Of a stretch of 60,797 nucleotides of DNA, positions 3,452 to 59,865 are shown piece by piece. Numbering within the stretch: position 1 is the first letter of the stretch; every line of letters begins with the position of its first letter. Source of the DNA: Gammaproteobacteria bacterium (GTDB taxonomy: Bacteria; Pseudomonadota; Gammaproteobacteria; UBA4575); assembly GCA_045105815.1 (NCBI GenBank), contig JBGCDX010000039.1, forward strand, positions 1 through 60,797, read 5' to 3'. Made by a program: the position numbers and the translations under genes. The notes under the pieces were generated by a model that searched no databases, was not told the DNA's origin, and worked only from the letters and a program-made list of their open reading frames with translations.

Positions 3452-3478
3452 TTATCGGCTTCATCAATAACTACTTTA
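3452..3478 (-). promoter_or_regulatory. sigma-28 (FliA)-type promoter facing the GGDEF-EAL gene
   Basis: Minus strand reads TAAA-GTAGTTATTGATGAA-GCCGATAA, an exact TAAA-N15-GCCGATAA match. It lies about 210 nt upstream of the ATG at 3240, with no convincing ORF between. Confidence 0.6.
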
Positions 3479-3511
3479 AGATCATATAACCTATTGTAAT
3501 TATTGAATTAT

Positions 3512-3712
3512 TTATGCTGAGTTAACTGAATCAAGTTCTGGCGGATGTATTAAATCTTTTTTACGGGAGTTAGATTTAGCCCCGTGAGCGGATAATGAGC
3601 ATGCAGCATTACAGTAAACTCCAAATCCTGGACTTAACTGTAAAAATCCTTGTGTGTAATAAATTGGCTGAAAAGTTATTCTTTCTTTACACCATGTACA
3701 TTTATGATACAT
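3512..3712 (-). CDS. small Cys-rich hypothetical protein (CxxC ... CxxxC, zinc-ribbon-like)
   Basis: 66 aa ORF MYHKCTWCKERITF...GVYCNAACSLS. A sigma-28-type promoter sits 27 nt upstream of its ATG. No family recognised. Confidence 0.45.
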   Translation of the reverse strand: MYHKCTWCKERITFQPIYYTQGFLQLSPGFGVYCNAACSLSAHGAKSNSRKKDLIHPPELDSVNSA

Positions 3713-3738
3713 ATCGATACGTCCGTATATAAGAAACC

Positions 3739-3765
3739 GTATCGACTAATATTCATAATACTTTA
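3739..3765 (-). promoter_or_regulatory. sigma-28-type promoter in front of the Cys-rich small ORF
   Basis: Minus strand reads TAAA-GTATTATGAATATTA-GTCGATAC (N15 spacing, CGATA core kept). The -10 box is one arm of an 8-bp inverted repeat (TCGATACG/CGTATCGA, 3714-3721 and 3738-3745). Confidence 0.45.
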
Positions 3766-3813
3766 ATTAAATAAATCTAAGTATCTGAAAAATATTGGAT
3801 TAAATGAATTTCA

Positions 3814-4275
3814 TCAAGCCGCTTTTGAATTTGAGTGTAGAGCTAATATTAATTCTGCTTCTGACTCTGTAAGCGAACATAATGAAATAATATCTTCTCT
3901 AGCATACCCTCGTCGCGCCAGTTGAACAGCCTGGGTATACGGCGCATTATTAAATAACTTTCCATCATTACTTGATGCTTCATCCGTTACAGATTTTTTC
4001 TCAACACTGTTTAGTGCCTTATTAAGCTCGTTTTGCCCAAGCTTCAACATTCCTAATTCCTCATCAATCAAACGATTAAAGCCCGTAATATCATCTATTT
4101 CATTAAATTGGGTTTTTTCTAACTTAATAACCTTTCTACTTACTATGAATGTCGACACTAGCATTACTAGCACCGAGAATAGTAAAACAGATTGTTCATA
4201 GCTAGCTCCAAATGCCAGGCCTATTTCATTCAAAAGACTCGTAATAGAATCATAATTAAAACTATAAATTTCCAT
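3814..4275 (-). CDS. DUF2802-like flagellar-cluster protein (single N-terminal TM, C-terminal helix-turn-helix-like tail)
   Basis: 153 aa. TM segment SVLLFSVLVMLVSTFIV. C-terminal YTQAVQLARRGYAREDIISLCSLTESEAELILAL resembles DUF2802 proteins, which sit at the end of fliA/che operons in Vibrio and Pseudomonas. Confidence 0.55.
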   Translation of the reverse strand: MEIYSFNYDSITSLLNEIGLAFGASYEQSVLLFSVLVMLVSTFIVSRKVIKLEKTQFNEIDDITGFNRLIDEELGMLKLGQNELNKALNSVEKKSVTDEASSNDGKLFNNAPYTQAVQLARRGYAREDIISLCSLTESEAELILALHSNSKAA

Positions 4276-4533: not shown

Positions 4534-5268
4534 CTAGTTTTTATTTTCTAACCATTCGCTCAATCTTGCTCGTAACATTACTAAAGCTTTACCATGTATT
4601 TGACAAACACGTGATTCACTTACTTCTAAAAGTGCACCTATTTCACGCAAATTCATTTCTTCTTCATAATAAAGTGACATCACTAATCTTTCCCGCTCTG
4701 GCAATTGATTAATTGTAGAAGTTAATTCTGAATGAAATTTTTCATCTATATATTCTTTATCAGGATCTGAGTCAGAACTCATTTCCATTTTATAGTCGGT
4801 TGAATCTTCACTTTCATCAATGCTATAAATTTGAGCTACAGATGAATCTCGTAAAATTTTATTATATTCATTTAGTTCAACGCCCATCTCCTGAGCAATT
4901 TCTGTGTCTGTGGCACTTGATAATGTCCGATTTTCTACTTTCCGTATAGCTTCCATCATATCTCTAGACTTACGGTGGACAGATCTAGGAGTCCAATCAC
5001 CGCGTCTAATCTCATCTAACATTGCTCCACGAATTCGTATCCCTGCATAAGTTTCAAAACTAGCACCTTGAGTAGGATTAAAATTTCTAGCTGCTTCCAA
5101 TAAACCAACCATACCTGATTGAATTAAGTCATCTACTAAAACAGTATCAGGCAACCTTCCTTTTAAATGATATGCAATTCTTTTTACTAGAGAAGCATGC
5201 TGAGTAACAACACCTTCAATATCTAGATTTTGAACTGCCGTGTAACTAGCTGTTGCTGCATCATTCAT
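4534..5268 (-). CDS. fliA: flagellar sigma factor FliA (sigma-28)
   Basis: 244 aa. Sigma-70-family region 2 (DLIQSGMVGLLEAARNF) and region 4.2 HTH (LREIGALLEVSESRVCQIH). Located directly after flhG. Confidence 0.93.
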   Translation of the reverse strand: MNDAATASYTAVQNLDIEGVVTQHASLVKRIAYHLKGRLPDTVLVDDLIQSGMVGLLEAARNFNPTQGASFETYAGIRIRGAMLDEIRRGDWTPRSVHRKSRDMMEAIRKVENRTLSSATDTEIAQEMGVELNEYNKILRDSSVAQIYSIDESEDSTDYKMEMSSDSDPDKEYIDEKFHSELTSTINQLPERERLVMSLYYEEEMNLREIGALLEVSESRVCQIHGKALVMLRARLSEWLENKN

Positions 5269-14965: not shown

Positions 14966-14982
14966 TTGCAACCAACGTGCCA
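14966..14982 (-). promoter_or_regulatory. sigma-54 promoter of fliL operon
   Basis: Minus strand reads TGGCACGTTGGTTGCAA (perfect TGGCAC-N5-TTGCA), 38 nt upstream of the fliL ATG. Confidence 0.8.
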
Positions 14983-24715: not shown

Positions 24716-24731
24716 TGCAAACAACATGCCT
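24716..24731 (-). promoter_or_regulatory. sigma-54 promoter of fleSR
   Basis: Minus strand reads AGGCATGTTGTTTGCA with GG/GC in the canonical register, about 55 nt upstream of the fleS ATG. Confidence 0.65.
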
Positions 24732-28497: not shown

Positions 28498-28513
28498 AGC
28501 AATATTAATGCCA
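28498..28513 (-). promoter_or_regulatory. sigma-54 promoter of fliD
   Basis: Minus strand reads TGGCATTAATATTGCT, canonical register, about 50 nt upstream of the fliD ATG. Confidence 0.65.
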
Positions 28514-29007: not shown

Positions 29008-30354
29008 TTACTGAAGTAGTGACAATACGTTCTGAGGCAAAGAATTTGCCTGAGAAACAATTGCTAGACCTGCCTGTTGTAGAATCTGCGAACGGGTTAA
29101 GTTTGCAGTTTCTGCAGCAAAGTCAGCGTCTTGAATACGCGAACGTGCAGCAGTCAAGTTCTCAACCGTAATCTGAAGGTTAGAAATAGTGGATTCAAAA
29201 CGTGTTTGAACCGAACCTAATTCAGATCGCAAGGTATTAATTTGTTGCAATGCCGCATCAACCGTTAATAACGTAGCGTTAGAATCTGCTTGAGTCAAAA
29301 TGCTAATGCCGTTTGCGGTTTGGTCTGCACCACCCGCACCCACTGCATTACCACTTAGCACTGTTGGTGCAGTACCACCCACTACCGCTGGAGTACCCAC
29401 CTCAGATGAAAGTGTAATACCGGCCTGAACCGTTTGTGCAGCACCACCTAATCCCACGCCATTATCAATTTCAATGGTAGAACCGTTAGTGTTACTTAAC
29501 ACAATCGCTCCAGTGGTACCTGAAGCAGTAACACCAGTTTGTGCTGAGAAATTGTTAATGGTATCAAGATCCGTAGCATCACCCGCAAGCGTCAATGAAA
29601 CACCATTAATATTTGCAGCGCCCGCAGCGTTAACCAATGGTCCAGTAGTAACCGTAGTATTAACCTGAGCTGAAACACCAGAAGTAGCTGTCACATTATT
29701 AATAGCATTGGCAAGCTGTGTAGTGGTTGCTCCTGCAGCCAAGCCAGAAAAATCCACTGCAACACCTTGTACAGTTAAATCATTTGCTGCCACGGAAGCA
29801 TCAACTTGAGCCTGCTCAATAGATCCACTTACAGAAACGTTCGCACCCAAAGTAGAACCACGTGCATCTACACCATCTACGCTAATAGTCTGGTTTTGAT
29901 TTGCACCAACCTGGAATACTAATGTACTTGCAGTACCATCCAGAATGTTTTGACCGTTAAATTGTGTGCTGTTTGAAATACGATTCACTTCAGCAATTAA
30001 CTGCTGCACTTCATTATTAAGTGCTTGGCGGTCAGTAGATGAGTTAGTATCGTTAGCAGACTGTACGGCTAGCTCACGAACACGCTGTAATGCATCGGTT
30101 GCCGTTGACAACGCGCCTTCAGCGGTTTGTGAAAACGAAATACCATCATTTGAGTTACGAATAGCTTGGTTCAGACCACGAATTTGTGAAGTAAATCGTT
30201 CTGCAATCGCTAGACCGGCAGCATCATCACTTGCACTGTTAATTCGCAAACCTGAAGACAAACGCTCCAATGAGGTTTGTAACGAACCTTGCGTTGTATT
30301 TAAGTTTCGTTGAGCATTCAACGAAAACAAGTTTGTGTTAATAATTTGAGGCAT
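29008..30354 (-). CDS. fliC: flagellin
   Basis: 448 aa. N-terminal INTNLFSLNAQRNLN...LSSGLRINSASDDAAGLAI and C-terminal ...ILQQAGLAIVSQANSLPQNVLSLLQ. Confidence 0.97.
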   Translation of the reverse strand: MPQIINTNLFSLNAQRNLNTTQGSLQTSLERLSSGLRINSASDDAAGLAIAERFTSQIRGLNQAIRNSNDGISFSQTAEGALSTATDALQRVRELAVQSANDTNSSTDRQALNNEVQQLIAEVNRISNSTQFNGQNILDGTASTLVFQVGANQNQTISVDGVDARGSTLGANVSVSGSIEQAQVDASVAANDLTVQGVAVDFSGLAAGATTTQLANAINNVTATSGVSAQVNTTVTTGPLVNAAGAANINGVSLTLAGDATDLDTINNFSAQTGVTASGTTGAIVLSNTNGSTIEIDNGVGLGGAAQTVQAGITLSSEVGTPAVVGGTAPTVLSGNAVGAGGADQTANGISILTQADSNATLLTVDAALQQINTLRSELGSVQTRFESTISNLQITVENLTAARSRIQDADFAAETANLTRSQILQQAGLAIVSQANSLPQNVLSLLQ

Positions 30355-30452: not shown

Positions 30453-30479
30453 TTATCGGCGTGTGATTTAAATCCTTTA
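30453..30479 (-). promoter_or_regulatory. sigma-28 promoter of flagellin gene
   Basis: Minus strand reads TAAA-GGATTTAAATCACAC-GCCGATAA, an exact consensus match, about 100 nt upstream of the fliC ATG. Confidence 0.8.
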
Positions 30480-40997: not shown

Positions 40998-41015
40998 TTG
41001 CAAATGCCATGCCAA
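40998..41015 (-). promoter_or_regulatory. sigma-54 promoter of flgB operon
   Basis: Minus strand reads TTGGCATGGCATTTGCAA (TGGCAT-N5-TTGCA), about 35 nt upstream of the flgB ATG. Confidence 0.75.
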
Positions 41016-42005: not shown

Positions 42006-42032
42006 TAAAGTTAATATAAAAACAGCCGATAA
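42006..42032 (+). promoter_or_regulatory. sigma-28 promoter of flgMN
   Basis: TAAA-GTTAATATAAAAACA-GCCGATAA, an exact consensus match, 30 nt upstream of the flgM ATG. Confidence 0.8.
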
Positions 42033-42061: not shown

Positions 42062-42370
42062 ATGACAGACAAAATTAACAATATAAGTGGGCCGATAAAC
42101 GGTAGCAACTTACAAAACACTTCTAAGGGTGCGAGCAATACTAATTCAAAGGTTAGTGGAAATGAATCCGCTAATGTCGCTAGCTCGGGCAAAGTCGACA
42201 TTTCTTCCGCCCAAACCCTAGATAAGATCAGAGAAAGCTTGGCATCGGAGCCAGTTATTGATCGACAGAAAGTCGAGACAGTGAAACAAGCGTTACAAGA
42301 TGGAACTTACAATATAAATTCGGAGAATATCGCGACCAAGCTTATTGAGATCGAACAACTCTTGAAGTAG
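42062..42370 (+). CDS. flgM: anti-sigma-28 factor FlgM
   Basis: 102 aa. C-terminal VETVKQALQDGTYNINSENIATKLIE. Confidence 0.9.
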   Translation: MTDKINNISGPINGSNLQNTSKGASNTNSKVSGNESANVASSGKVDISSAQTLDKIRESLASEPVIDRQKVETVKQALQDGTYNINSENIATKLIEIEQLLK

Positions 42371-42373
42371 TTT

Positions 42374-42886
42374 ATGAGTTCATCCGATCCCAGCATTAAT
42401 ACGGGCCTGCATAATGACCCCTATGCGACCTCCACTATTGAGGGCTTTCTTACACACTTCAATAAAAAGCTAGAGGCTTTTGTTGAGATATTACAGCATG
42501 ATCAAGAGACCTTAATTAAAGGTAGTGCGGACGAAATCAGTCAGTCTGCACAGAACAAGCTGACATATATACAAACTTTATCTGACTTTATTGCTAACTA
42601 TTTTAATAATACATCAAACAGCAACAGTCTTGAGGAATCACTCAAGATGATGAATGTGATTTGTATCGAGAAAAAAATACAACAATGGAATGAATCACTA
42701 GATTTAATTCATTTTTGTCGAGAGTTATCTGATGAAAACAGTATATTACTTGCTAACCGCCTAAAATCTACTAACAACGCACTTGATACCCTTTACTCAT
42801 TAACAGGCTCTCAACAAACAAAAACTTATGACGACAGTGGTCATTCCAAGCATTCACATATATCTAGACAATTAGCTTCCGTCTAA
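42374..42886 (+). CDS. flgN: FlgK/FlgL chaperone FlgN
   Basis: 170 aa helical protein, 3 nt after flgM. Confidence 0.75.
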   Translation: MSSSDPSINTGLHNDPYATSTIEGFLTHFNKKLEAFVEILQHDQETLIKGSADEISQSAQNKLTYIQTLSDFIANYFNNTSNSNSLEESLKMMNVICIEKKIQQWNESLDLIHFCRELSDENSILLANRLKSTNNALDTLYSLTGSQQTKTYDDSGHSKHSHISRQLASV

Positions 42887-44232: not shown

Positions 44233-45672
44233 TTATTCAGCTACATAAATATTAACTCGATTACGTCCATCTTCTTTTGCGGCATATAATGCTTTATCTG
44301 CTCGCTCAAATATAGATTGAGCGGTGTCTTTATGGTGGATATTAGAAATTCCACAAGAAACTGTTATTTTTACCTGCTTGCCTTTGACCATAAATACAGT
44401 ATTGGAAACCTCAATTCTTATATGATCTGCAAATTCCTTTGATAGCTCTACTGTTAAATCTGGCACTAACATTGCGAACTCTTCGCCACCAAATCTTGCT
44501 AAAAAATAATCTTTTTTAAGCAATTTACTTAATTTCTCAGAAACTGTTTTGAGTACTTTATCTCCAACAACATGGCCATATTGATCATTAAATTTTTTGA
44601 AATGATCAATATCCCATATCAACAATGAAAAATTATCATAACTCTCTATTGTTGAAATAACTTCAGATATTTTTTCATTATATGCTTGTCGATTATATAA
44701 ACCCGTAAGAGGATCATGCAATGCATGCTCTTTTTCCAGTTGCACGCGATCTCTTAATTCTTGCGCTTCTTTCTTAAGCTCATTAACTTGATTAACAAGG
44801 ACTTTTACATTCTCATTAACTCGTGTCTCTTGAACTTTAACAACTTGCCTTTCTTCTTCAACAATTTCTTGCAATGCATCCAATTGGACCTTAACTATGT
44901 TTTTCAATGACACTAAGTCATTTTCAGAACTAATATTGTTATTGATAAGTGTAACTGTATTGCTCATTCGCTCATTCAGCTCGCCTTGAAGCTTAATATC
45001 TGATGCTTGTTCTTCAGCGACATTATGTAATTTATCTCCAATACGACTAATTTGTGCTCCAATATTAAACAAGAAGTTTTCCAATTCTTCTTTATCGGAA
45101 TACGTGTCCTGGTATACAATATAAAACAACTCATAGATACCTTGTAAACTAGAATTTAAATCAGCAACTGATCTTATATTCTCGCATTTCTTTCTCAATA
45201 ATTTACTTTTATCATGATAGTTTTTTGAGAATTTGAATTTTTTAATAATCTCTAATGGCAGTCCAAAAACATTGTCTTGCTGCTCAATTACATATTTATT
45301 ACTTACTTTTTTTACTACATTTACTATCGAAAATAGAACATCATTAGCCTCTGACAAATCAGTTATCTGACTTGCCATATTTTTAACCGAGCCAAATGCA
45401 TCAGAATTATAAAATATTGATTGTGTAGCATTGATCATATTGACCAATGATTTTGACATATCTCTTACATCTTCATCTCTATCATCAATATCAGCCTCAT
45501 AGGATTCAAGCTCGGATTCAGACTCAGGCATAGTCTCAGTAACATTAGACTCTTGGTTTTCAGCCATGGATTCACCGTTTGCATATAATTTTTTAATAAA
45601 TGCAGCAGGTACCGAAAGAAGACCAGAAGACTTACTTTCAAGTTCTTTATTATCAGAATCAGATGAAACCAT
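44233..45672 (-). CDS. diguanylate cyclase (coiled-coil N-terminus, GGEEF, no I-site)
   Basis: 479 aa. LTGLYNRQAY, IDHFKKFNDQYGH, RFGGEEFAML. Position -9/-6 relative to GG is K/Y, so there is no RxxD. Confidence 0.88.
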   Translation of the reverse strand: MVSSDSDNKELESKSSGLLSVPAAFIKKLYANGESMAENQESNVTETMPESESELESYEADIDDRDEDVRDMSKSLVNMINATQSIFYNSDAFGSVKNMASQITDLSEANDVLFSIVNVVKKVSNKYVIEQQDNVFGLPLEIIKKFKFSKNYHDKSKLLRKKCENIRSVADLNSSLQGIYELFYIVYQDTYSDKEELENFLFNIGAQISRIGDKLHNVAEEQASDIKLQGELNERMSNTVTLINNNISSENDLVSLKNIVKVQLDALQEIVEEERQVVKVQETRVNENVKVLVNQVNELKKEAQELRDRVQLEKEHALHDPLTGLYNRQAYNEKISEVISTIESYDNFSLLIWDIDHFKKFNDQYGHVVGDKVLKTVSEKLSKLLKKDYFLARFGGEEFAMLVPDLTVELSKEFADHIRIEVSNTVFMVKGKQVKITVSCGISNIHHKDTAQSIFERADKALYAAKEDGRNRVNIYVAE

Positions 45673-45680
45673 AATATTAC

Positions 45681-47327
45681 TTAATCAATTGTCCCATTAA
45701 TTTTCTTAAGAGGAATATTTATCACTGTATTTTCTAAATCTTCATCAGAAGACTGTTTTTTATCAGGCCAAGGACGTGTTTCTAAGTTCCTACGCTCATT
45801 AAAAGGCATCACTTTTTCTATTGGATACATAACATTAAGGGGTACAGATAAACCATTAGATTGCACTACACGCGCATGACGCCTATCTAATTCACGCGGA
45901 TGCTTGACACCACATGAGTGCGCAATCATTCCAACTTCATGAACAATATTTTTAACATAATTTGCAACTCTTTCTGACTTTACTTTTGGATTTAAGCCAC
46001 GTTGCAATCTTTTATTATGTGTAGTAATTCCTGTAGGGCAAGTATCTTTATTACATTGCAAAGCTTGAATACATCCTAATGCAAACATGAAACCACGCGC
46101 AGAAGTAACAAAATTAGCTCCCAAACATAATGCCCAAGCTACATCAGCAGGAGTTACTAACTTACCTGATGAAATCACTTTCACTCTGCCATACAAATTA
46201 TATTGTTTAAGTTTATTAACTAAAATAGGTAAACTTTCATTCAAAGGCAAGCCCATATCATCGAGCAATGGCATAGGTGCAGCACCTGTTCCTCCATCTG
46301 CACTATCAACGGTTATAAAATCTGGTGCATATAACTTCCCACGCTGACCAATCAAGGTAAATAAATTATCCAACCATTCTTCAGAACCAATAACACTCTT
46401 TATTCCAACAGGTTTCCCAGTGATCTCACGAATGTATCCAATCATTTCTAATAAATCTTCATCATTACTAATTTCTGGATGACGATTAGGGCTTATTGAA
46501 TCCTCACCTTGACGAACACCGCGTATACCAGCAACTTCTTTAGTTACTTTTGCACCTGGTAGTATGCCTCCTTTTCCAGGCTTACCCCCTTGACTAAGTT
46601 TTATTTCAAACATTTTTACTTGGTCGTAGTTAGCTATTTCAATCAACTTAGATTCACTTAATCTTCCACTTATTGGGTCCCTTACACCATACTTTGCAGT
46701 ACCAATTTGAAATACAATGTCACAACCACTTCTCAAGTGATATTTTGAAAGACCACCTTCACCTGTGTTTAACCAACAACCTGAAATTTTTGCTCCTTCT
46801 GCAAGTGCCAGCACAGCAGGTTTAGAAATTGCACCATAACTCATGGCTGATATGTTGAATATTGATTTTGTTGTAAATGGAACTCTGCAATCTGGCCCAA
46901 TGGTTTGTTCCGACACAGGCACTGCATCTTCACCCAAAGTTGGGTATGGGCAATTTGAAAACAATACGGTTCCTACTTTTTTCAAATCTCGTGTTGAACC
47001 AAAAGCAATGGTATTGCTAATATCTTTTGCAGCACGATACACCCATGATCGTTGCGCACGATTAAATGGCATCTCTTCACGGTCCATAGAAAAGAAATAT
47101 TGTCTGAAAAATTCACCGACATGTTCAAAAAAATATCGAAAGCGACCGATAACAGGAAAGTTTCGTCTTACTGCATGTTTTGACTGAGTGATATCGCTTA
47201 TATATAAAATTGGCAAGCAAACCAATAAAGTCAGAAATAATATAGAAAATAGATCTTGTGATATTTCAAGACCATAGCTTATCCAGGTTTTACCCAGTCG
47301 TAATATTTCATCCATGTTGATATTCAT
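45681..47327 (-). CDS. membrane-anchored FMN-binding glutamate-synthase-family (GltB domain 2-like) protein
   Basis: 548 aa. N-terminal TM. KLSQGGKPGKGGILPG, DFITVDSADGGTGAAP and SGKLVTPADVAWALCLGANF are typical of the Glu_synthase FMN domain. Confidence 0.8.
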   Translation of the reverse strand: MNINMDEILRLGKTWISYGLEISQDLFSILFLTLLVCLPILYISDITQSKHAVRRNFPVIGRFRYFFEHVGEFFRQYFFSMDREEMPFNRAQRSWVYRAAKDISNTIAFGSTRDLKKVGTVLFSNCPYPTLGEDAVPVSEQTIGPDCRVPFTTKSIFNISAMSYGAISKPAVLALAEGAKISGCWLNTGEGGLSKYHLRSGCDIVFQIGTAKYGVRDPISGRLSESKLIEIANYDQVKMFEIKLSQGGKPGKGGILPGAKVTKEVAGIRGVRQGEDSISPNRHPEISNDEDLLEMIGYIREITGKPVGIKSVIGSEEWLDNLFTLIGQRGKLYAPDFITVDSADGGTGAAPMPLLDDMGLPLNESLPILVNKLKQYNLYGRVKVISSGKLVTPADVAWALCLGANFVTSARGFMFALGCIQALQCNKDTCPTGITTHNKRLQRGLNPKVKSERVANYVKNIVHEVGMIAHSCGVKHPRELDRRHARVVQSNGLSVPLNVMYPIEKVMPFNERRNLETRPWPDKKQSSDEDLENTVINIPLKKINGTID

Positions 47328-47352: not shown

Positions 47353-47379
47353 ATATCGACTGTAGATGAATATTCTTTA
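47353..47379 (-). promoter_or_regulatory. sigma-28-type promoter in front of the FMN-enzyme/cyclase pair
   Basis: Minus strand reads TAAA-GAATATTCATCTACA-GTCGATAT (N15), 26 nt upstream of the ATG at 47327. Confidence 0.5.
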
Positions 47380-47433: not shown

Positions 47434-48042
47434 TCAAGCAAAATTCTTTTCTCGAATGAGCTTGATCTCTTTACCACGTACATGAGCATGAATTGCCTCT
47501 CTATCTTCAGCATTGATATGCGTGAACTCAAGCCCTATTGTAGATTGGCCCTCATACTGCTCAGCTTGCTCACAGCGCACTATTTTTCCATACGCTAATA
47601 TGTAGTTGGAAATTTGTGAAAGCTGCAGCCTTAATTCTACATATGACCCCATATCCAAAGGATCATCATAGCTAAAGCTAATACCACTAGCGCTTATATT
47701 AACTTCATGCCAATTTAAATCAGGGATCATTGAGCATCCTGAAAACTGTCTTCTAGCTAAAGTATTAATTTTATCGTCTAGCAAAGTTAAATACTTGGCC
47801 ACCTCAGGATAACGCCTACGCACTAATGCGAACTGGTCTGTTAACACTTTAGAAGTGTCAGTAAAATTATTCAATAATTGCAATTCTGAATTATTCTCAG
47901 GATATTTTTTTAATACTTCTTTTATTTGATCATCTGGAATTAAACGCAATGATAATAAAATATTATCATCTATTCTAAACGCACTCCGATTTTCAATTTC
48001 AGCATGCATGTCTTTTTCTTGTGATAGATTTATGTCATCCAT
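47434..48042 (-). CDS. PilZ-domain protein with widely separated RxxxR and NxSxxG motifs
   Basis: 202 aa. RSAFR at residues 19-23 and NISASG at 115-120, followed by beta-barrel-like SFSYDDPLDMGSYVELRLQL...GKIVRCE...IGLEFTHI. The start lies 18 nt after the motB stop. Confidence 0.75.
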   Translation of the reverse strand: MDDINLSQEKDMHAEIENRSAFRIDDNILLSLRLIPDDQIKEVLKKYPENNSELQLLNNFTDTSKVLTDQFALVRRRYPEVAKYLTLLDDKINTLARRQFSGCSMIPDLNWHEVNISASGISFSYDDPLDMGSYVELRLQLSQISNYILAYGKIVRCEQAEQYEGQSTIGLEFTHINAEDREAIHAHVRGKEIKLIREKNFA

Positions 48043-48060
48043 ATCAATTGACCATGAGAT

Positions 48061-48954
48061 TTAATTATTTTTTGAAGCACTATTTTGTGCATCATCATCG
48101 TATTCATAAAATAAATGTTTATCTCCCAATATTGAAATTTCAACACGTCTGTTTTTAGAGCGACTATCTTCTGTGTAATTAGTAAAAATAGGTTTAGTGT
48201 CACCATAAGCTCGAATTTGCAGACGATCTTCATGAATATCTTCCTTAGCCTCTAAATGATGCACTACCGCAGCAGCACGTGCTGCTGACAGCACCCAATT
48301 TGACGGGAACCTTGATGTATTTATTGGCCGATTATCTGTATGACCAGAAACTATAATATTTCCATCCACTTCTTTTAGTGCTGAAGCTATTTTTTTCAAT
48401 AATAAGGCAAATGCACCATCAATATGGTCATCACCTGATGAAAACGTGCCCCGCTCTCTAATACGAATAATGATTTCACGATCTGTCCAATCAACCTCAA
48501 CGGTCCCCGTATCAATTTCATTTTTTAATACTTCAGTAATTCTTTCTGCTTCTTCTTGCATTCTTTTTACTGCTGCATTATAAATTTCTTTGGCAATCTG
48601 TTTTTTATCTACATCTTCTCCACCACTTGAAAAATCCAAGTTAGCTTTGCTCTCATCCGTAGTTTGTTGCCGCATTATTTTCAATAATGTCTCATTATCA
48701 GGTTTACCTGGACTGAATTCAGATGTCACCACACTTGTGCCTTTAGGCAGCTCATTTGCAGGTACATCTCGTTGCACACCAAAAGCTCTAGATAGAGAGC
48801 CAGATAATTCTTTAAATTTATTAACATCCATTTCAGAGAATGATAGAAGCAGCACAAAGAAACACATTAGCAATGACATTAAGTCTGCAAATGTTGCCAT
48901 CCATGCAGGGGAACCGGAAGATTCTGCTGCTTTTGCTGGAGGTGCATCAGACAT
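48061..48954 (-). CDS. motB: stator protein MotB/PomB family
   Basis: 297 aa. N-terminal TM with conserved Asp (WMATFADLMSLLMCFFV). C-terminal OmpA-like GHTDNRPI...SNWVLSAARAAAV. Confidence 0.92.
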   Translation of the reverse strand: MSDAPPAKAAESSGSPAWMATFADLMSLLMCFFVLLLSFSEMDVNKFKELSGSLSRAFGVQRDVPANELPKGTSVVTSEFSPGKPDNETLLKIMRQQTTDESKANLDFSSGGEDVDKKQIAKEIYNAAVKRMQEEAERITEVLKNEIDTGTVEVDWTDREIIIRIRERGTFSSGDDHIDGAFALLLKKIASALKEVDGNIIVSGHTDNRPINTSRFPSNWVLSAARAAAVVHHLEAKEDIHEDRLQIRAYGDTKPIFTNYTEDSRSKNRRVEISILGDKHLFYEYDDDAQNSASKNN

Positions 48955-48967
48955 AACTTAACCTTAA

Positions 48968-49750
48968 TTATGCAGCTTCTTTTTCTTGACTCGATTCACC
49001 TACTTGATCACGCTTACTATTTGGTAAATAAGTGGCAAGTATCTGCTCAACAACTCTTGGATTAGTTCCTGCCTGAATTGCTGATACTGATTCAAGTATT
49101 AAATCTTTGCTAAGTCGCTCTTCCATTGCAATCTTCTTTAACTTATCCGCTAATGGAAGCGCTACTGCATTCGCAATAACTGCTCCATAAAGAGTAGTTA
49201 ATAATGCAACTGCCATTGCAGGGCCAATAGACTTAGGGTCATCCATGTTAGACAACATCTGCACTAATCCAATAAGCGTGCCGATCATACCCATCGCAGG
49301 CGCTGCATCACCAATAGATTTAAACATTTCTCTACCCGTTTCATGACGCTCAATAGAAAGATTAATATCTTTACCCAACATTTTTTGAACGACCTCAGTT
49401 GGATGTCCGTCAATACATAAATTGATGCCTTGCTCTAAAAATGGATGTCCGATTTCTTTACCCTCTAGTGCAAGTACACCTTCTTTTCTGGCCACATCAG
49501 CAAGTGCAACCGCTTCTTCAATAAGTTTTGTTAGGCTTACCGCTTTATGAAGCAATGTAGTTAAAACAAGCTTAAATGAACCAAAAAAGTCTCCTAAAGA
49601 AATTCGCGTTAAGGTAGCAGCAAAAGTGCCCCCAATAACAACAGCCAGTGATGGTACATTCATGAAGGTCCCAGCTGACCCCCCTAAGACGATCGCTAAC
49701 ACAATCACAGCCATAGCCCCCACCAAGCCTATTAGAGTGGCTAAATCCAT
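48968..49750 (-). CDS. motA: stator protein MotA/PomA family (closest in look to PomA/MotC type)
   Basis: 260 aa. MDLATLIGLVG..., APAMGMIGTLIGLVQMLSNMDDPKSIGPAMAVALLTTLYGA. Confidence 0.93.
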   Translation of the reverse strand: MDLATLIGLVGAMAVIVLAIVLGGSAGTFMNVPSLAVVIGGTFAATLTRISLGDFFGSFKLVLTTLLHKAVSLTKLIEEAVALADVARKEGVLALEGKEIGHPFLEQGINLCIDGHPTEVVQKMLGKDINLSIERHETGREMFKSIGDAAPAMGMIGTLIGLVQMLSNMDDPKSIGPAMAVALLTTLYGAVIANAVALPLADKLKKIAMEERLSKDLILESVSAIQAGTNPRVVEQILATYLPNSKRDQVGESSQEKEAA

Positions 49751-49857: not shown

Positions 49858-49884
49858 GTAACGGCCAAAACATATAAATATTTA
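49858..49884 (-). promoter_or_regulatory. sigma-28-type promoter of the motAB-pilZ operon (variant -10 GCCGTTAC)
   Basis: Minus strand reads TAAA-TATTTATATGTTTTG-GCCGTTAC (N15). The same variant -10 octamer recurs with the same spacing at 59839-59865. Confidence 0.5.
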
Positions 49885-49964: not shown

Positions 49965-49990
49965 TAAAAATCAAGTAAATATGCCGATAC
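49965..49990 (+). promoter_or_regulatory. sigma-28-type promoter of the CheY-like gene
   Basis: TAAA-AATCAAGTAAATAT-GCCGATAC (N14), 58 nt upstream of the ATG at 50049. Divergent from the motA promoter. Confidence 0.45.
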
Positions 49991-50048: not shown

Positions 50049-50408
50049 ATGAAAATCCTAATTGTTGATGATAGTCAGGCAATGCGCAAAATCATCAAGT
50101 GGACAATTAAATTAGCTGATATGAATGCTGATGAGTTTTTTGAAGCCTCTTGTAGTGATGATGCTCTTTTAATATCAGAAACCAAAAAACTAGATTTAAT
50201 AATTACAGATTGGAATATGCCAGAAATGGGTGGCTTAGCATTACTTAAAGCGTTAAGAGATTCTCAAAATATGGTTAGATTCGGATTTGTTGTTACACAA
50301 TCGTCAACAAATATTTATAACTTAGCAAAAGATGCGGGCGCAAACTTCATCATATCTAATCCAAGCTCTTCCAATACATTTAAAGCTCAAGTAAACCAAA
50401 CATTATAA
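50049..50408 (+). CDS. single-domain CheY-like receiver with Asn at the conserved Lys (K109-equivalent) position
   Basis: 119 aa. DD (7-8), ITDWNMPEMGG phospho-acceptor context and VVTQ Thr are present, but FIISNP replaces the YVVKP-type motif. Confidence 0.85.
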   Translation: MKILIVDDSQAMRKIIKWTIKLADMNADEFFEASCSDDALLISETKKLDLIITDWNMPEMGGLALLKALRDSQNMVRFGFVVTQSSTNIYNLAKDAGANFIISNPSSSNTFKAQVNQTL

Positions 50409-54445: not shown

Positions 54446-55801
54446 TTAGCGTTCCTGGAATGCATTCTGAAAACCACGATAAATAGGCTTCAATAGATAA
54501 TCTAATACTGACTTTTCCCCAGTTTTAATATCAGCTTGTACAGTCATTCCAGGAATAATTCGATATTTATTCGTTTCATCTCCAATATAACTTTTATCTA
54601 AAGCAATTGTTGCCTGAAAATAAGGAATATGTTGTTCATCTAAAAAAGTCGACGCACTTATCTTTTGTACTTTACCCATTATAGTACCAAATCGATGAGG
54701 ATCATAACTATTAACTTTAACTTCAGCCTTCTGACCTAAATTTATATGCCCAATATCGGATGTTGTAACTTTTGATTCAACCACTAAAACATCATCACCA
54801 GGTATAATTTCCATTATTACTTGACCTGGCTTAATCACACTTTGAATAGAATTCACCACTAAGCCCTTCACAATACCAGAAACAGGTGCAGTAATATCCA
54901 GTCTACTCACACGGTCCTGAAGCTTAATAATATTCTTATCTAACTCAGCCATTTCGCCCATCACCTTTCCTATATCTTTCTTGATAGACTCATAAAACTT
55001 ATTTTCAACATCTACAACTGATTGATACGCTTCTTCTTTTGCTTCATTTGAGACTAAAATGTTAGACAAAGTTTGCTGATATTGTGTCTCAGTTTCTGCT
55101 AAATTTACTTTCCTATCCAGATACTCTGCATTTGATACTAAACCTTGTTCAACCAATCCCTTGCGCATATTCGCCTGTTGCCTAAGAACGTTAGTTTCAC
55201 GTTTTAGATACTTGGCTTTAATCTTCTCTCTCGTTAGCTCTTCTTCACGCTGTTTTATCTTTGTTTGCGCTAAATCAATCTGTGATATATAACTTTTTAA
55301 CTGTGCTTTATAAATATTAACTTCGCTTGCTACCAAATCCGCGTATTCATCTTTATATTTATCAAAGTTTGGCTCACCTTCTTTTAATATTGCATGCAAC
55401 CTAATCAACTGAAGATCTAGTACAGTATGACGTGCTTCTATTTGTTGCAAATCTGACTCAGTAGAGGTCGGCGCTATACGTACTAATACATCACCTTCAT
55501 TAACTATTTCACCATCATTTACGTATATTTCTTTTATAATTCCACCTTCTAAATGTTGAACCACGTGATTATGTCCTGTTGGCACAACCTCACCTTGAGT
55601 TACTGCCACTTCATTTACCGGAGTTACGTAAGCCCAGACAACCATAGCAACGCATAAAAAAGCAATTGTCATGATCACGATACTAACGACACCGGGTGCG
55701 TCTGACTCTTCTAATTGAATAGACTGTGCTATAAAACGTGCACGAGCTCTAGGAACTTCTGACTTAACCTTATCGGATAACGATAAATCTTCCTCTATCA
55801 T
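54446..55801 (-). CDS. HlyD-family type I secretion membrane fusion protein
   Basis: 451 aa. N-terminal TM, long coiled coil, C-terminal beta-barrel. 4-nt overlap with the upstream ABC gene. Confidence 0.88.
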   Translation of the reverse strand: MIEEDLSLSDKVKSEVPRARARFIAQSIQLEESDAPGVVSIVIMTIAFLCVAMVVWAYVTPVNEVAVTQGEVVPTGHNHVVQHLEGGIIKEIYVNDGEIVNEGDVLVRIAPTSTESDLQQIEARHTVLDLQLIRLHAILKEGEPNFDKYKDEYADLVASEVNIYKAQLKSYISQIDLAQTKIKQREEELTREKIKAKYLKRETNVLRQQANMRKGLVEQGLVSNAEYLDRKVNLAETETQYQQTLSNILVSNEAKEEAYQSVVDVENKFYESIKKDIGKVMGEMAELDKNIIKLQDRVSRLDITAPVSGIVKGLVVNSIQSVIKPGQVIMEIIPGDDVLVVESKVTTSDIGHINLGQKAEVKVNSYDPHRFGTIMGKVQKISASTFLDEQHIPYFQATIALDKSYIGDETNKYRIIPGMTVQADIKTGEKSVLDYLLKPIYRGFQNAFQER

Positions 55802-57987
55802 TTCTTCATCTCCGTTAAATACTTGATTGCTTCACCTGGTGTACCCACATGAGCGACCATTCCGTTAACCATTACGATTGCCTTATCCGCCAACCGTATA
55901 TGTGAAGGTCGATGACTCACCATTAAAATAGTTTGTTTGCCACGCATTGTTTCTAAATGATCCATCAAATTCTGATCCGTAATTTTATCTAAAGAAGTTC
56001 CTGGCTCATCCATTAAAAATATTGGCGCCTTTCTAACGTAAGAACGCGCTAAGCAAATACCATTGACAAGACCGGAAGGTAATCGAGATGTAGTGTGATC
56101 ACCCACTAAAGTATCAAAGCCTTTAGGAAGATCCTTAATCGCGGGCAATATACCGGCCTGCTCTGCAGCTACAATTAATTGCTTATCTGTTGCAAGCGGT
56201 TGATTTAAACGAATATTCTGCCCGATAGTTCCATAAAATAAGCTTGGCTTTTGAGGCATATACGCAATAACTCGACGTAAGTCAGTAGCATTCATCTGAC
56301 GCACATCAGTATCATCAATGGTTAATGAACCACCCTGAGCGCGATACATTCCTGCCACCAGCTTTAACACAGTAGATTTACCCGAACCATTGCCACCAAC
56401 TATGGCAACAAAATCACCTGGGTTGATTGCAAAAGTAGCGCCCACCAAAGCTGGGTCTTCATTCGGGGCATACCTGAAAGTAACGCGATCAAAGTTAATT
56501 TGGCCAGTGATTTTCGGCATAATCAAACCAGCTTTGTAGCTATTAGGTTCAGAAGGGACACGCATTAATTGATTCAATTGTTGAACGCTTTGTTTAATTT
56601 GATCGATTTGCAACATTGCCAAACAGACACCTTGCAATGGTGATAATACCCTCCAAATTAAAGCCATTACTGCAATAAGAGCACCAATCGTCATATCACC
56701 ATTCATAACTTTCAAAGTACCAAGTGCTAATACACATATACCAGCAATCGTCATTAGAGATTGAGCAACACTATTAATTAATGCATGGCTAGTTGAAGTC
56801 TTAAACGTCCGCGTCATCGCTTCACCAGATGCTTCTCGATATAATTCTTTCCAAGCACCTTCAGCTCCCAAAGCTTTAAGTTCACGCAATCCAGAAAATG
56901 TTTCCATTAACATTCGTTGTCTAGCTGAACGTGCATGACCTGCATGAACTAACTTTTTATTTAAACTAGGAAACCATAGCCATCCAAAAATTGTATATAT
57001 TCCTATCATCGCCACTGGCACTAGTGCAATACTTCCACCTAAGATTGTAAGCAAAACAATAAATAACAACACAAATGGCAGTTCCAAGAATAAAGTCGCA
57101 CTTGGACCTGAAAAGAAATCTCTAATCGATTCAAACTGTCGTAAACGAGATAACTGAGAAATAACAGTTGAACGCTCTGTTAGCGTAGGTGGTAATGACA
57201 TTATTTTTTTAAATGTCTCAACACCAATTATATAGTCCAATCGACCCGCTAATAGCCCTAATGTTTTTGACCTAACTAACCTAAATATTAACTCACAAGC
57301 AAGTGCTACAGAAATGCCTACCATAAGAAAAGGAATACTATGCGTTGATCTTGCACCAATTACATTATCGTACACAACCATTATAAAAAGTGGCACAAAC
57401 ATAGCGATAATATTTAACATAAATGTCATCGCTACTAAATGCTTTAATAGCTTACGAAATCTTTTTAGTACCTGAGAAAACCATTGCTCACTAGATTGCT
57501 CCAACCCAGTCATCGCATGCGTTGGATGCATATCAGTAAAGTAATATGCAGTGCCTTTTTCTTTTAGAATATTATCTGTAAAATACTTATTTTTATGTGC
57601 ATCAAAATAAGTAGCTGAATCCTCAGATTTTTCTTTTATTACATATACACCACCAGCATCTGACTCAAACAAACAAGGCAAAAGTGTTGGGCATATTTTC
57701 CCTATCGATGTACTTTTTTCATCACTTTCATAACCCAATGTTACTAACATGTTTCTCAAATCAACCAAATCAATTTGATTGGAAAAATGTGGGATCGATT
57801 CAATCAATTCTCGTTTATATGAGCGCCACCCTAACTCAGTAAGAATTGGCATTATGCAAGCAGCATAAGGTGAAAGCTCTGCTATTTTAGAGTACGTTTT
57901 ATTTCTAATAGCATTAGACAATCGCTCAGACATTGGCAAGCGTTCATCATCAGTTAATTTTTTAATATCTTCTATGGTTACACTCAT
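55798..57987 (-). CDS. T1SS ABC transporter with N-terminal C39-like domain; degenerate signature motif (LPSGL)
   Basis: 729 aa. Roughly 150-aa N-terminal domain, six-TM region, Walker A GGNGSGKST, Walker B IFLMDEPGTSLD, H-loop VSHRPS. LPSGLVNG replaces LSGGQRQ. Confidence 0.88.
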   Translation of the reverse strand: MSVTIEDIKKLTDDERLPMSERLSNAIRNKTYSKIAELSPYAACIMPILTELGWRSYKRELIESIPHFSNQIDLVDLRNMLVTLGYESDEKSTSIGKICPTLLPCLFESDAGGVYVIKEKSEDSATYFDAHKNKYFTDNILKEKGTAYYFTDMHPTHAMTGLEQSSEQWFSQVLKRFRKLLKHLVAMTFMLNIIAMFVPLFIMVVYDNVIGARSTHSIPFLMVGISVALACELIFRLVRSKTLGLLAGRLDYIIGVETFKKIMSLPPTLTERSTVISQLSRLRQFESIRDFFSGPSATLFLELPFVLLFIVLLTILGGSIALVPVAMIGIYTIFGWLWFPSLNKKLVHAGHARSARQRMLMETFSGLRELKALGAEGAWKELYREASGEAMTRTFKTSTSHALINSVAQSLMTIAGICVLALGTLKVMNGDMTIGALIAVMALIWRVLSPLQGVCLAMLQIDQIKQSVQQLNQLMRVPSEPNSYKAGLIMPKITGQINFDRVTFRYAPNEDPALVGATFAINPGDFVAIVGGNGSGKSTVLKLVAGMYRAQGGSLTIDDTDVRQMNATDLRRVIAYMPQKPSLFYGTIGQNIRLNQPLATDKQLIVAAEQAGILPAIKDLPKGFDTLVGDHTTSRLPSGLVNGICLARSYVRKAPIFLMDEPGTSLDKITDQNLMDHLETMRGKQTILMVSHRPSHIRLADKAIVMVNGMVAHVGTPGEAIKYLTEMKK

Positions 57988-57995
57988 TTTCTAAC

Positions 57996-59750
57996 CTATT
58001 CGTTTATTGCTTGGTTAGCATTTAACGTAGGAGCATCTTTTTTATTTGGTTTGAACTGGATTTTTTCAAGCTTCCCATCACCTAATTTAAAATGTCTATC
58101 ACAAATATTTAATAGCGATGGCCGATGAGAAATAATTACCATCGTTAATCCATTACGGTTTTCTTGCAAATAATTCTGTAAACGTGCTTCATTACCAAAA
58201 TCTAAACATGAATTTGCATCATCAAATAAAACGATTTTTGGATGACCATAAGAAACATCACCAATCATTGATCGCACTAAAATTATCTGCTGTCGAACAC
58301 CTGCAGGTATTGCATCAACATTAGCACCACCAATCCTTGTATCTAATCCATTAGGAAGTTTTGTAATCGCTTTTGTTAACCCAAATATTTCAGCGAGCTC
58401 AATAGCTTGATCTACCGCATAGCCTTCCCTAAACAATGTTAAGTTATCAAGTATAGTGCCGTCATAAATTGTGCCTTGTTGTGGCATTAAGGCTATCTGC
58501 GCACGCACAGATGAACCATCTAATGTTTGTATGCCTTTTCCATTCAGCATTACTTGGCCTTGCGTTGGATTAACAAAGCCCATAATTAGATTTATCAATG
58601 TCGTTTTACCAACACCATTTGCACCCATTATTCCTATTGCTTCACCTGGCTTAATATGAATAGAAACACCTGAAAGCAATTCAATATTGCTACCTTCATG
58701 TTGGAAATGCACATCATCAAGCTCAATCTCACCATTTAGTGTAATTGGTTGAGAGTTTTCTTTTAAGGCTTCATGAGGTAATGTCAATATATCATTAACT
58801 TTATCACCTGCAATATGCACCGCTTGAAGTTGAGTCCATAAACCCATGGCCTTTAATGCAGGTTGCAACACTCTCCCTGAAAGCATAGTGCCTGCAGCTA
58901 ATGCACCTATAGTTAACTCACCTGAAACAACAAATATACTTCCAATACCTACAAAACTAATCATTACTACTTGTGAAAAAGTTGCGCCTAGACCAGACAC
59001 CAAGCTATTTATTCTACTTACTTCATAAACACTTGCTGCAGATTGAGCTTGCAATCTTTCGTATCTACGAAGCATGAGCGCTTCCATTGCCATGGCTTTA
59101 ACTGTATGAATACCTTGCAAGGTTTCTATTAAAAAATTTTGTCTTCGCTCATCAGCAGATGATCTCTGCTCTAAAGCAATTTTTAATTTTTTACCAGTGA
59201 AATATGAGACAACAATAAAAATTGCGATTATTGTCACAGGAATTAATACCATTTTTCCTGAAAATAAAAATATCAAGCTTAAAAATATCAACACAAACGG
59301 AAGGTCAACTAACATTAGAATACTTTGACCTGAGTAAAACTCACGAACCTTCTTTAATCCTTCCATCTTATCTAAGTAAGATCCTATGGAGTTACTTTCA
59401 AACTTAACTAAATCAGCATGTACCACTCTGTCTATCGAGTGAATACTTTCGGTATGTTCATACTGCACACCTTTCCAAGTCAAAATTGCTGATCGAGCAA
59501 CACGTAAAACACCATCTAAAACTGCGGCTACTAGTAATCCAAACACTAATAACGAAAAGGTATCTGTCGCTTGATTAGGCAAAATACGATCGTACACTTG
59601 CAAAATAACCAGCGGCAATGCAAGTGTCGTAAGGTTAATAAACAATGACGCAAGTAAAACGTCCCAACGCTTCCAAGCTGTTGGTACTTTATGGTTATTT
59701 TCGTTTGAATCATTAACAGAAGTGTTTTCTGAAATAGATAATTGATCCAT
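57996..59750 (-). CDS. second T1SS-type ABC transporter without N-terminal domain; degenerate signature (IPAGV) and Walker B (DD)
   Basis: 584 aa. Walker A GANGVGKTT, IPAGVRQQ in place of LSGGQRQR, IVLFDDANSCLD in place of hhhhDE, H-loop ISHRPS. Confidence 0.88.
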   Translation of the reverse strand: MDQLSISENTSVNDSNENNHKVPTAWKRWDVLLASLFINLTTLALPLVILQVYDRILPNQATDTFSLLVFGLLVAAVLDGVLRVARSAILTWKGVQYEHTESIHSIDRVVHADLVKFESNSIGSYLDKMEGLKKVREFYSGQSILMLVDLPFVLIFLSLIFLFSGKMVLIPVTIIAIFIVVSYFTGKKLKIALEQRSSADERRQNFLIETLQGIHTVKAMAMEALMLRRYERLQAQSAASVYEVSRINSLVSGLGATFSQVVMISFVGIGSIFVVSGELTIGALAAGTMLSGRVLQPALKAMGLWTQLQAVHIAGDKVNDILTLPHEALKENSQPITLNGEIELDDVHFQHEGSNIELLSGVSIHIKPGEAIGIMGANGVGKTTLINLIMGFVNPTQGQVMLNGKGIQTLDGSSVRAQIALMPQQGTIYDGTILDNLTLFREGYAVDQAIELAEIFGLTKAITKLPNGLDTRIGGANVDAIPAGVRQQIILVRSMIGDVSYGHPKIVLFDDANSCLDFGNEARLQNYLQENRNGLTMVIISHRPSLLNICDRHFKLGDGKLEKIQFKPNKKDAPTLNANQAINE

Positions 59751-59790
59751 TCTTACTTTCTAGCTCCCTAATAAATACTCATACGCATAC

Positions 59791-59817
59791 AGCTCATCAC
59801 AACCTTGTGAATGAGCT
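59791..59817 (-). promoter_or_regulatory. stem-loop in the RTX-ABC intergenic region / 5' leader of the ABC genes
   Basis: AGCTCATCACAA-cc-TTGTGAATGAGCT: a 12-bp stem with one bulged A and no adjacent U-tract. Confidence 0.4.
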
Positions 59818-59838
59818 TGTATATAAATCTATGAATAT

Positions 59839-59865
59839 GTAACGGCTAAAGAATGAAACTCTTTA
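59839..59865 (-). promoter_or_regulatory. sigma-28-type promoter in front of the T1SS ABC genes
   Basis: Minus strand reads TAAA-GAGTTTCATTCTTTA-GCCGTTAC (N15). The -10 octamer is identical to the motA candidate. About 90 nt upstream of the ATG at 59750. Confidence 0.45.

Follow-up and report, generated by a model that had tools for sequence, protein, structure and literature searches.

Positions 1 to 60,797 of contig JBGCDX010000039.1, from an uncultured gammaproteobacterium, are referred to here in their entirety as the window. These 60,797 nucleotides (nt) contain a whole polar flagellar cluster like those of Vibrio and Pseudomonas. It also holds nine candidate promoters for the late flagellar sigma factor sigma-28 (FliA), which are the subject of this work. 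Our gene map, drawn from the list of open reading frames (ORFs) and from Pfam and NCBIfam searches, places in this cluster flhA, flhF, fleN and fliA; fliE to fliR; fleQ, fleS and fleR; fliC, flaG, fliD and fliS; flgB to flgL; flgA, flgM and flgN; and pomA and pomB. The genes of a polar regulatory hierarchy, namely a FleQ/FlrA-type sigma-54 activator, FleS/FleR, FlhF/FleN and FliA, are thus all encoded here. The putative FleQ matches sigma-54 activator families and fliA is confirmed by a family model; the remaining hierarchy gene names are based on N-terminal sequences and gene order. The FliA sequence aligns from end to end with the solved FliA structures 9wsf and 6pmi (245 and 194 bits), with regions 2 and 4.2 strongly conserved. 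The gene for its anti-sigma factor, FlgM, is followed by flgN, which was named from its position and its conservation among the relatives.

The closest relatives of the window are metagenome-assembled genomes labelled Gammaproteobacteria or Thiotrichales. A graded series of them was found with a PomA scan of species-representative genomes, and the gene order from ABC584, the first gene of a type I secretion operon, to flgB is kept in 12 of these relatives, at protein identities of about 45% to 98%. Loci for the regions upstream of ABC584, from fliA to the GGDEF-EAL gene, and from flgL to fliC were gathered by homologue look-ups and by a metagenome scan.

Sigma-28-type sites in the window

Sigma-28 promoters have a textbook consensus of TAAA at -35 and GCCGATAA at -10, separated by 15 nt. 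A first-pass annotation of the window, made from the sequence alone, had listed eight such sites and read them as an expanded FliA regulon. All eight are present with the sequences, places and strands it gave, and six of them begin TAAAG, as it said. Each is intergenic and co-oriented with the next gene, and the -10 boxes lie 25-211 nt from the start codon (26-210 had been reported), the individual distances in order of coordinate being 211, 26, 98, 29, 25, 107, 58 and 88 nt. The exact TAAA-N15-GCCGATAA occurs in three sites only, those of the GGDEF-EAL unit, fliC and flgM. The site of a CheY-like gene has one mismatch and the remaining four have two each, and all five keep the CG.TA core. Only the CheY-like site, with a spacer of 14 nt, departs from the usual 15 nt.

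The pattern proposed earlier, TAAA-N14/15-G[CT]CG[AT]TA[ACT], matches nine times in the 60.8-kb window, compared with 0.38 matches expected from dinucleotide-preserving shuffles (maximum 2). Eight of the nine are intergenic, although intergenic DNA makes up only 6.5% of the window (binomial P = 2.6e-9), and a null of intergenic composition predicts 0.027 matches, all these figures being subject to the caveat that the degenerate pattern was fitted post hoc to the sites themselves. The ninth match (51470-51496, - strand), which the first-pass annotation had not listed, lies antisense inside a gene for an NMT1-type binding protein. Its -10 core is gone in relatives L002 and L003, it is unrecognizable farther out, and it is not kept even in a 98%-identical relative. 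Because it is intragenic, antisense and not conserved, it was set aside as a chance match.

A second measure of strength came from a position weight matrix (PWM) trained only on the canonical late promoters of fliC, flgM and pomA and their orthologues, and scored at all positions on both strands. All three of these genes, which were expected FliA targets (pomA having been called motA), carry the motif, the fliC site with the top score of 29.2. Among the noncanonical sites, that of the GGDEF-EAL unit ranks 3 (21.0), the CheY-like site 5 (16.1) and the site of a cysteine-rich ORF 8 (14.7). The weakest of the listed sites are those of ABC584, at rank 11 (12.4), and of a flavin mononucleotide (FMN) protein, at rank 18 (9.5). 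The matrix also found a site that lies outside the earlier pattern, at 1075-1101 upstream of an HDOD-GGDEF gene. It scores 15.6 with three mismatches to the consensus (TCAA for TAAA and ACCGTTAA for GCCGATAA).

Two further sets of hits were rejected. One, inside flgM (42071-42098, score 16.1), recurs in four of eight relatives, but it follows the peptide G-P-I-N, and its CGA core is lost in L008 and L012. The others recur inside pomB, where they have a poor -10 box (GCAGTAAA), follow the peptide AKEIYNAAVK and score below 6 in the window. Conserved sigma-28 sites were also sought for flaG/fliD/fliS, for the gene GGDEF309, for the NMT1/histidine kinase/response regulator unit and for the DUF2802 gene, and none was found for these. 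The distant relative L014 has additional strong sigma-28-type matches at 18571-18601 (-) and 17120-17150 (+), one upstream of flgA and one antisense and pointing at flgM; these have no counterpart in the window.

Conservation of the sites among relatives

In each relative of this syntenic clade that covers a given site, the site has a counterpart at the orthologous position. For the canonical genes, recurrence is 8/8 at flgM (plus the distant L014) and 10/10 at pomA, and the fliC site has identical -35 and -10 boxes, with a single spacer difference, in L094 and L095. The nonstructural sites behave in the same way, with 10/10 at the CheY-like gene, 9/9 at the FMN-protein gene (again plus L014) and 3/3 at the cysteine-rich ORF. 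Toward the window edges, the sites of the GGDEF-EAL unit and the HDOD-GGDEF gene recur in 4/4 relatives each; that of ABC584 was recovered in 4/4 by the PWM scan and is visible in all seven aligned relatives. The site upstream of the HDOD-GGDEF gene is kept in its 4/4 relatives as CTCAAG-N14-kACCGTTAAC (GGCCGTTAT in L093). That of the GGDEF-EAL unit is conserved in L089, L090/91, L092 and L093, and that of the cysteine-rich ORF stands at the same offset from the DUF2802 stop codon in L089, L090/91 and L092.

The conservation is concentrated in the two boxes. Box identity is 0.92-0.98 (0.98 at pomA), against a mean intergenic identity of 0.51-0.75 and a spacer identity of 0.39-0.87, and among the 4+8 column sets of each alignment the boxes rank at or near the top. 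The FMN-protein site is a case in point, with boxes 92% identical and a spacer only 39% identical. Weak -10 boxes also shift toward the consensus in relatives. The GTCGATAT of the FMN-protein site becomes GCCGATAA in L007, L010, L011 and L013, and likewise in L014, where the enzyme is only 70% identical. The GCCGTTAC of the ABC584 site becomes GCCGATA in L085-L088, where the upstream gene is a different one. Across the seven relatives, the ABC584 site reads CTGATTTCTAAAGrGTTT..AGCCGwTA, even where the upstream gene differs. These alignments indicate that purifying selection acts on both boxes while the spacers vary, and it is this phylogenetic footprinting, not motif strength alone, that carries the claim.

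With FliA and FlgM both encoded in the cluster, the motif present at the canonical genes and the sites conserved in orthologous positions, the sigma-28 reading holds for all eight listed sites. We consider it very probable that these eight and the site at 1075-1101 are functional sigma-28 promoters, and that together they make up the final tier of a polar hierarchy of the Vibrio/Pseudomonas type in an uncultured clade. Their positions and those of the associated genes are collected in Table 1.

Table 1. Predicted promoters and associated genes in the window, in order of position.
Feature	Position	Strand	Details
HDOD-GGDEF gene, 5' part, runs off left window edge	1..1010	-	translation and orthologues
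Predicted sigma-28-type promoter, HDOD-GGDEF gene	1075..1101	-	TCAA-N15-ACCGTTAA; 64 nt upstream; absent from first-pass annotation
PAS-GGDEF-EAL protein, 707 amino acids (aa)	1117..3240	-	Pfam EAL 3.4e-66, GGDEF 1.7e-40, PAS
Predicted sigma-28 promoter, GGDEF-EAL unit	3452..3478	-	TAAA-N15-GCCGATAA, exact; 211-nt leader
Clade-specific 66-aa protein, CxxC...CxxxC	3512..3712	-	homologue alignment, tblastn
Predicted sigma-28 promoter, cysteine-rich ORF	3739..3765	-	TAAAG-N14-GTCGATAC; 26 nt upstream
fliA, sigma-28 factor presumed to read the promoters	4534..5268	-	NCBIfam NF005413, 292.5 bits vs cutoff 201
Sigma-54-type match, fliL	14967..14982	-	exact
Sigma-54-type match, fleS	24716..24731	-	1-2 mismatches
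Sigma-54-type match, fliD	28498..28513	-	1-2 mismatches
fliC, flagellin	29008..30354	-	NCBIfam flagellin families, best E-value 3e-120
Predicted sigma-28 promoter, fliC	30453..30479	-	TAAA-N15-GCCGATAA, exact; 98 nt to start
Sigma-54-type match, flgB	40999..41014	-	1-2 mismatches
Predicted sigma-28 promoter, flgM-flgN	42006..42032	+	TAAA-N15-GCCGATAA, exact; 29 nt to start
flgM (anti-sigma-28) and flgN	42062..42886	+	FlgM TIGR03824, 62.4 bits vs cutoff 40.75
FMN-protein/cyclase unit	44233..47327	-	membrane Glu_synthase-type FMN protein 45681-47327, GGDEF cyclase 44233-45672
Predicted sigma-28 promoter, FMN-protein/cyclase unit	47353..47379	-	TAAAG-N14-GTCGATAT; 25 nt to start
pomA-pomB-PilZ unit	47434..49750	-	pomA 48968-49750, pomB 48061-48954, PilZ-domain protein 47434-48042
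Predicted sigma-28 promoter, pomA	49858..49884	-	TAAAT-N14-GCCGTTAC; 107-nt leader
Predicted sigma-28 promoter, CheY-like gene	49965..49990	+	TAAA-N14-GCCGATAC; 58 nt to start; divergent from pomA promoter
CheY-like single-domain receiver	50049..50408	+	Pfam Response_reg 2.3e-18
Type I secretion operon	54446..59750	-	ABC584 57996-59750, ABC729 55798-57987, HlyD-family adaptor 54446-55801
Predicted sigma-28 promoter, type I secretion operon	59839..59865	-	TAAAG-N14-GCCGTTAC; 88-nt leader

Alternative explanations

Several points weigh against this reading. About 27 coding-sequence positions also come within two mismatches of the consensus, and several score as high as the ABC584 and FMN-protein sites, so these two weakest sites are not justified by the motif alone. 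Related genomes were read as 20-kb slices, and the comparison of intergenic with intragenic hit rates covers the window only; the relatives available for the fliC site are the close ones, L094 and L095. A terminator scan of the window gave counts at or below shuffle expectation, so the boundaries of transcription units are drawn solely from gene spacing. We infer the FliA dependence of the sites from sequence, in an uncultured marine-type gammaproteobacterium. Finally, the contrast between boxes and spacer is weakest at ABC584. There, the promoter region 59839-59890 (-) is conserved past the boxes, in a spacer that is itself 87% identical and in upstream GCAAG...CTGATTT, and it contains the palindrome CTAAAG-N9-CTTTAG. 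Because of this conserved spacer and palindrome, a second DNA-binding factor may also act at ABC584.

These points bear differently on the alternatives. Chance matches of a degenerate, A+T-rich pattern to intergenic DNA that is itself A+T-rich, picked post hoc, would agree with the derivation of the pattern from the sites, with one of its nine matches being clearly fortuitous, and with the many near-consensus positions in coding sequence. Against this stand the gap between the intergenic-composition null and the eight matches observed, the three exact matches to an independent 12-base consensus, and above all the recurrence of the sites in every covering relative, at loci that are not those of near-identical strains and whose proteins diverge down to 45-55% identity. 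We regard chance as having a negligible probability, the conservation data having effectively refuted it. A narrower objection is that only the strong sites (fliC, flgM, pomA, GGDEF-EAL and perhaps the CheY-like site) are sigma-28 promoters, with the weaker four (cysteine-rich ORF, FMN protein, ABC584 and HDOD-GGDEF) being conserved for some other reason, such as a different regulator's site or part of a sigma-70 promoter in AT-rich DNA. Its appeal lies in the fact that PWM score cannot separate the weak sites from coding noise within the window, and in the extended conservation and palindrome at ABC584. However, the weak -10 boxes do not drift but become perfect GCCGATAA or GCCGATA in relatives, the distance of 15 nt between the boxes is kept even though the sequence of the spacer changes (as at the FMN-protein gene), and all four sites keep their orientation and a short distance to a start codon. 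Moreover, a sigma-70 consensus scan of the window found no enrichment of sigma-70-like hexamer pairs, with counts at or below shuffle expectation. This restricted version is therefore improbable.

It is also conceivable that the motif is read not by the FliA of the window but by a sigma-28-family paralogue encoded outside it, such as one from a second flagellar system. Promoter motifs are alike across FliA/WhiG-family paralogues, and our analysis covers the window, so the genome beyond it could hold such a gene. On the other hand, the sole flagellar cluster seen carries fliA, flgM and all nine sites together, the same fliA is syntenic in all relatives, and its DNA-binding regions align closely with those of solved FliA proteins. 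We judge a paralogue to be very unlikely, and we retain FliA of the cluster as the factor that would read all nine promoters.

Genes under the predicted promoters

The gene labels of the first-pass annotation proved right. The genes encode a PAS-GGDEF-EAL protein, a Glu_synthase-type FMN protein with a GGDEF cyclase, a CheY-like receiver that lacks Lys109, a small four-cysteine ORF product and an ABC protein of type I secretion. Three of the units carry enzymes of cyclic di-GMP (c-di-GMP) turnover. The HDOD-GGDEF gene has orthologues of 511-516 aa in L089-L093, with the PF08668 HDOD and PF00990 GGDEF domains. Its leader contains an inverted repeat, AGTGAA...TTCACT, at about 1044-1066 (-), just downstream of the sigma-28-type site and found also in L089 and L090. 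In the PAS-GGDEF-EAL protein, the GGDEF and EVL motifs are intact and the start codon is conserved in orthologues. Between the promoter and this gene, L089 and L092 have an intact Ion_trans channel gene. In the window, the last 21 codons of that gene can still be recognized (67% identical) at 3265-3327 (-), within the leader 3241-3451. By this comparison, the channel gene was deleted in the lineage of the window and the sigma-28 promoter retained, which explains the length of the leader as a deletion that left a 3' remnant. Many GGDEF-EAL orthologues (P0127, P0129, P0137 and P0144 were compared) are about 830 aa long and have an extra internal PAS domain after residue ~25, which is absent from the 707-aa form. 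In the third unit, the genes for the FMN protein (Pfam Glu_synthase 1.4e-86) and the cyclase (GGDEF 5.9e-43, motif GGEEF) are 8 nt apart, and the pair is syntenic in all relatives.

Two small proteins are also placed under predicted sigma-28 promoters. The 66-aa Cys4 protein has seven homologues only, with 30 invariant columns that include C5, C8, C34 and C38. It is conserved in L089, L090 and L092 by tblastn and has no Pfam or NCBIfam match. This conservation marks the cysteine-rich ORF as a real, clade-restricted protein. We considered whether it might be a remnant of a ~123-aa N-terminal extension of the 830-aa GGDEF-EAL orthologues, and rejected the idea because the long forms share the N-terminus and differ by their extra internal PAS. 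The CheY-like receiver has a DWNMPEM signature but carries Asn in place of Lys109, a residue present in nearly all receivers, and Ile in place of Tyr106. CheY is its best NCBIfam match, but the score of 55.9 bits is far below the cutoff of 189. The protein may serve in atypical signaling or as a phosphate sink. The acidic pocket and the phospho-acceptor Asp are kept.

The stator unit is well defined by its families (PomA NF006527, 344 bits; MotB family NF006508, 335 bits; PilZ Pfam 1.9e-11). The PWM scan of the window and its relatives found no separate conserved promoter for the PilZ-domain gene, which begins 18 nt after pomB and is therefore probably carried on the pomAB transcript. The PilZ-domain protein has the NxSxxG half of the c-di-GMP-binding signature and no RxxxR motif, so its binding of c-di-GMP is uncertain. 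The pomA leader (49751-49857, -) contains two blocks that are nearly invariant in 13 genomes, TATGTCGCAAGAGTCTATCTTCG right after the -10 box and AAAyCAGTAAGTTA, while the rest diverges. These blocks may form a post-transcriptional control element; the leader has no Rfam match, and an Rfam scan of the long 5' untranslated regions for riboswitches or known leaders found none.

The secretion operon was identified by matches to TIGR03375, TIGR01843 and the Pfam families ABC_membrane and ABC_tran. It lies downstream of an RTX-repeat gene at 59949-60785. In two relatives, strong sigma-28-type sites stand beside genes with RTX or cadherin repeats that are located upstream of the secretion operon (L082 3111-3141, +, score 20.9; L088 1007-1037, +, score 18.6); the corresponding region falls past the right edge of the window. 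Since the RTX genes of L082 and L088 carry sites of their own, the secretion substrates may share the regulon. The ABC584 leader contains a conserved hairpin at 59792-59816 (-), GCTCATTCAC...GTGATGAGC, about 25 nt downstream of the -10 box, in which some base pairs are kept by changes on both sides among the five sequences compared. It could be a stability or attenuation element.

Proposed mechanism

By extension from the established FliA/FlgM checkpoint, FlgM would keep FliA inactive as long as the hook-basal body is incomplete. Once this structure is finished, FlgM would be exported, and the RNA polymerase-FliA holoenzyme would fire the promoters described here. The flagellar units activated together would be fliC, flgMN (which closes a feedback loop) and the sodium-type stator genes pomAB with their PilZ-domain gene. 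The same event would turn on the divergent atypical CheY-like receiver, the Cys4 miniprotein and the RTX type I secretion operon, together with the three c-di-GMP units PAS-GGDEF-EAL, HDOD-GGDEF and FMN-protein plus GGDEF cyclase. The likely logic of this arrangement is to reserve for cells with a finished flagellum the turnover of c-di-GMP, a possible brake or effector, and the export of an adhesin or toxin.

A bolder proposal, which we put forward as a speculation that is more apt to fail than to hold, is that the FlgM/FliA checkpoint is not just a timer of flagellar assembly but a hard-wired switch of the form "swim, then decide to stick." Finishing the flagellum would simultaneously bring up an entire private c-di-GMP circuit and the export machinery for RTX adhesins or toxins. 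In the circuit there would be two cyclase units, and a membrane FMN enzyme coupled to one of these could feed in redox or metabolic state. It would also include a PAS-GGDEF-EAL protein ancestrally co-transcribed with an ion channel, the PilZ protein of the stator operon and a CheY that is atypical in phosphorylation. If this proposal is true, commitment to a surface would be possible only for recently motile cells.

Relation to known systems

It is useful to compare this predicted regulon with those of better known bacteria. The FliA regulon of Escherichia coli includes the c-di-GMP phosphodiesterase gene yhjH/pdeH and the PilZ-protein gene ycgR (PMC4183435). As in class 3 of E. coli and Salmonella, the window has the TAAA(G)-N15-GCCGATAA grammar, the FlgM partner and the core targets fliC, flgMN and motAB. 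Its variant boxes also have counterparts among the E. coli sites bound by FliA in chromatin immunoprecipitation sequencing, which include TCAAG at -35 as well as ACCG.., GTCGATA. and ..CGTTA. variants (PMC4183435). The differences lie in the hierarchy, which is of the FleQ/FleSR/sigma-54 polar type here and of the FlhDC type in the enterics, and in the content of the regulon. In contrast to E. coli and Salmonella, the PilZ gene here is inside the stator operon, the cluster has no chemotaxis operon, and the regulon takes in at least three GGDEF-domain enzyme units as well as type I secretion genes and a Cys4 protein specific to the clade. Furthermore, many FliA sites in E. coli are intragenic and poorly conserved, whereas those described here are intergenic and conserved.

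Vibrio cholerae is closer in organization, with its polar flagellum, four-tier hierarchy and PomAB-type stators. In class 4 of that hierarchy, the diguanylate cyclase gene cdgD and the RTX adhesin gene frhA require FliA and the flagellar hierarchy (PMC6890996, citing Syed et al. 2009, PMC2795290). As is predicted for RTX proteins here, FrhA is exported by type I secretion. The dependence of frhA is at least partly exerted via CdgD; in our case, the secretion operon and the RTX genes of L082 and L088 carry predicted sigma-28-type promoters directly. The enzymes and domain architectures of V. cholerae are not orthologous to those of the window. In Pseudomonas putida, FliA partly controls the GGDEF-EAL phosphodiesterase BifA, which favors swimming, and the putative sigma-28 promoter of bifA was mutated and tested (PMC5300878). 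FliA also affects c-di-GMP levels (PMC4866697). In P. aeruginosa PAO1, no sigma-28 consensus was found upstream of bifA, and that upstream region has no significant similarity to the one in P. putida (PMC5300878). Unlike in the case of bifA, the GGDEF-EAL promoter of the window is an exact consensus that is conserved across the clade.

The term "expanded," which the first-pass annotation had applied to the regulon, holds in a relative sense. The five nonstructural sites are conserved in every relative examined, but in other bacteria FliA is already documented to control c-di-GMP enzymes, PilZ proteins and RTX adhesins (PMC4183435, PMC6890996). The same pattern is known from E. coli, Vibrio and Pseudomonas, and no new regulatory principle is established; what appears notable is the number of c-di-GMP units and the direct predicted sigma-28 promoter on the secretion operon. 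The window would add one more independent example of c-di-GMP enzymes and type I secretion under the direct control of the late flagellar sigma factor. As such, it supports the view that linking motility with second-messenger and adhesion modules is a design that recurs among bacteria and is not peculiar to enterics and vibrios. The regulon also assigns candidate flagellum-linked functions to the clade-specific Cys4 miniprotein, the FMN-enzyme/cyclase pair and the CheY without Lys109. Finally, it shows that, given graded relatives for footprinting, DNA alone allows a regulon to be read with some confidence even where a lineage is accessible only through metagenomes.

Other features of the cluster

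A 56-aa lysine-rich ORF lies at 4293-4463 (-), between fliA and the DUF2802 gene. It could be assigned to no family, and an ORF of 56-57 aa occupies the same place in all five related loci. The putative FleQ (24793-25932, -) is only 379 aa long, and because its alignment to NtrC-type models starts at about position 125-170, it appears to be without an N-terminal receiver or FleQ domain. The gap upstream of it (25933-26313) contains about 380 nt without an ORF of at least 80 aa on the strand of the gene. The sigma-54-type pattern TGGCAC-N5-TTGCA has an exact match upstream of fliL and matches with one or two mismatches upstream of fliD, flgB and fleS; over the whole window, its 49 matches against 32 expected are only a modest enrichment. 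The presence of these candidate sites ahead of genes of earlier tiers fits what a four-tier hierarchy with sigma-28 as the last tier would predict.

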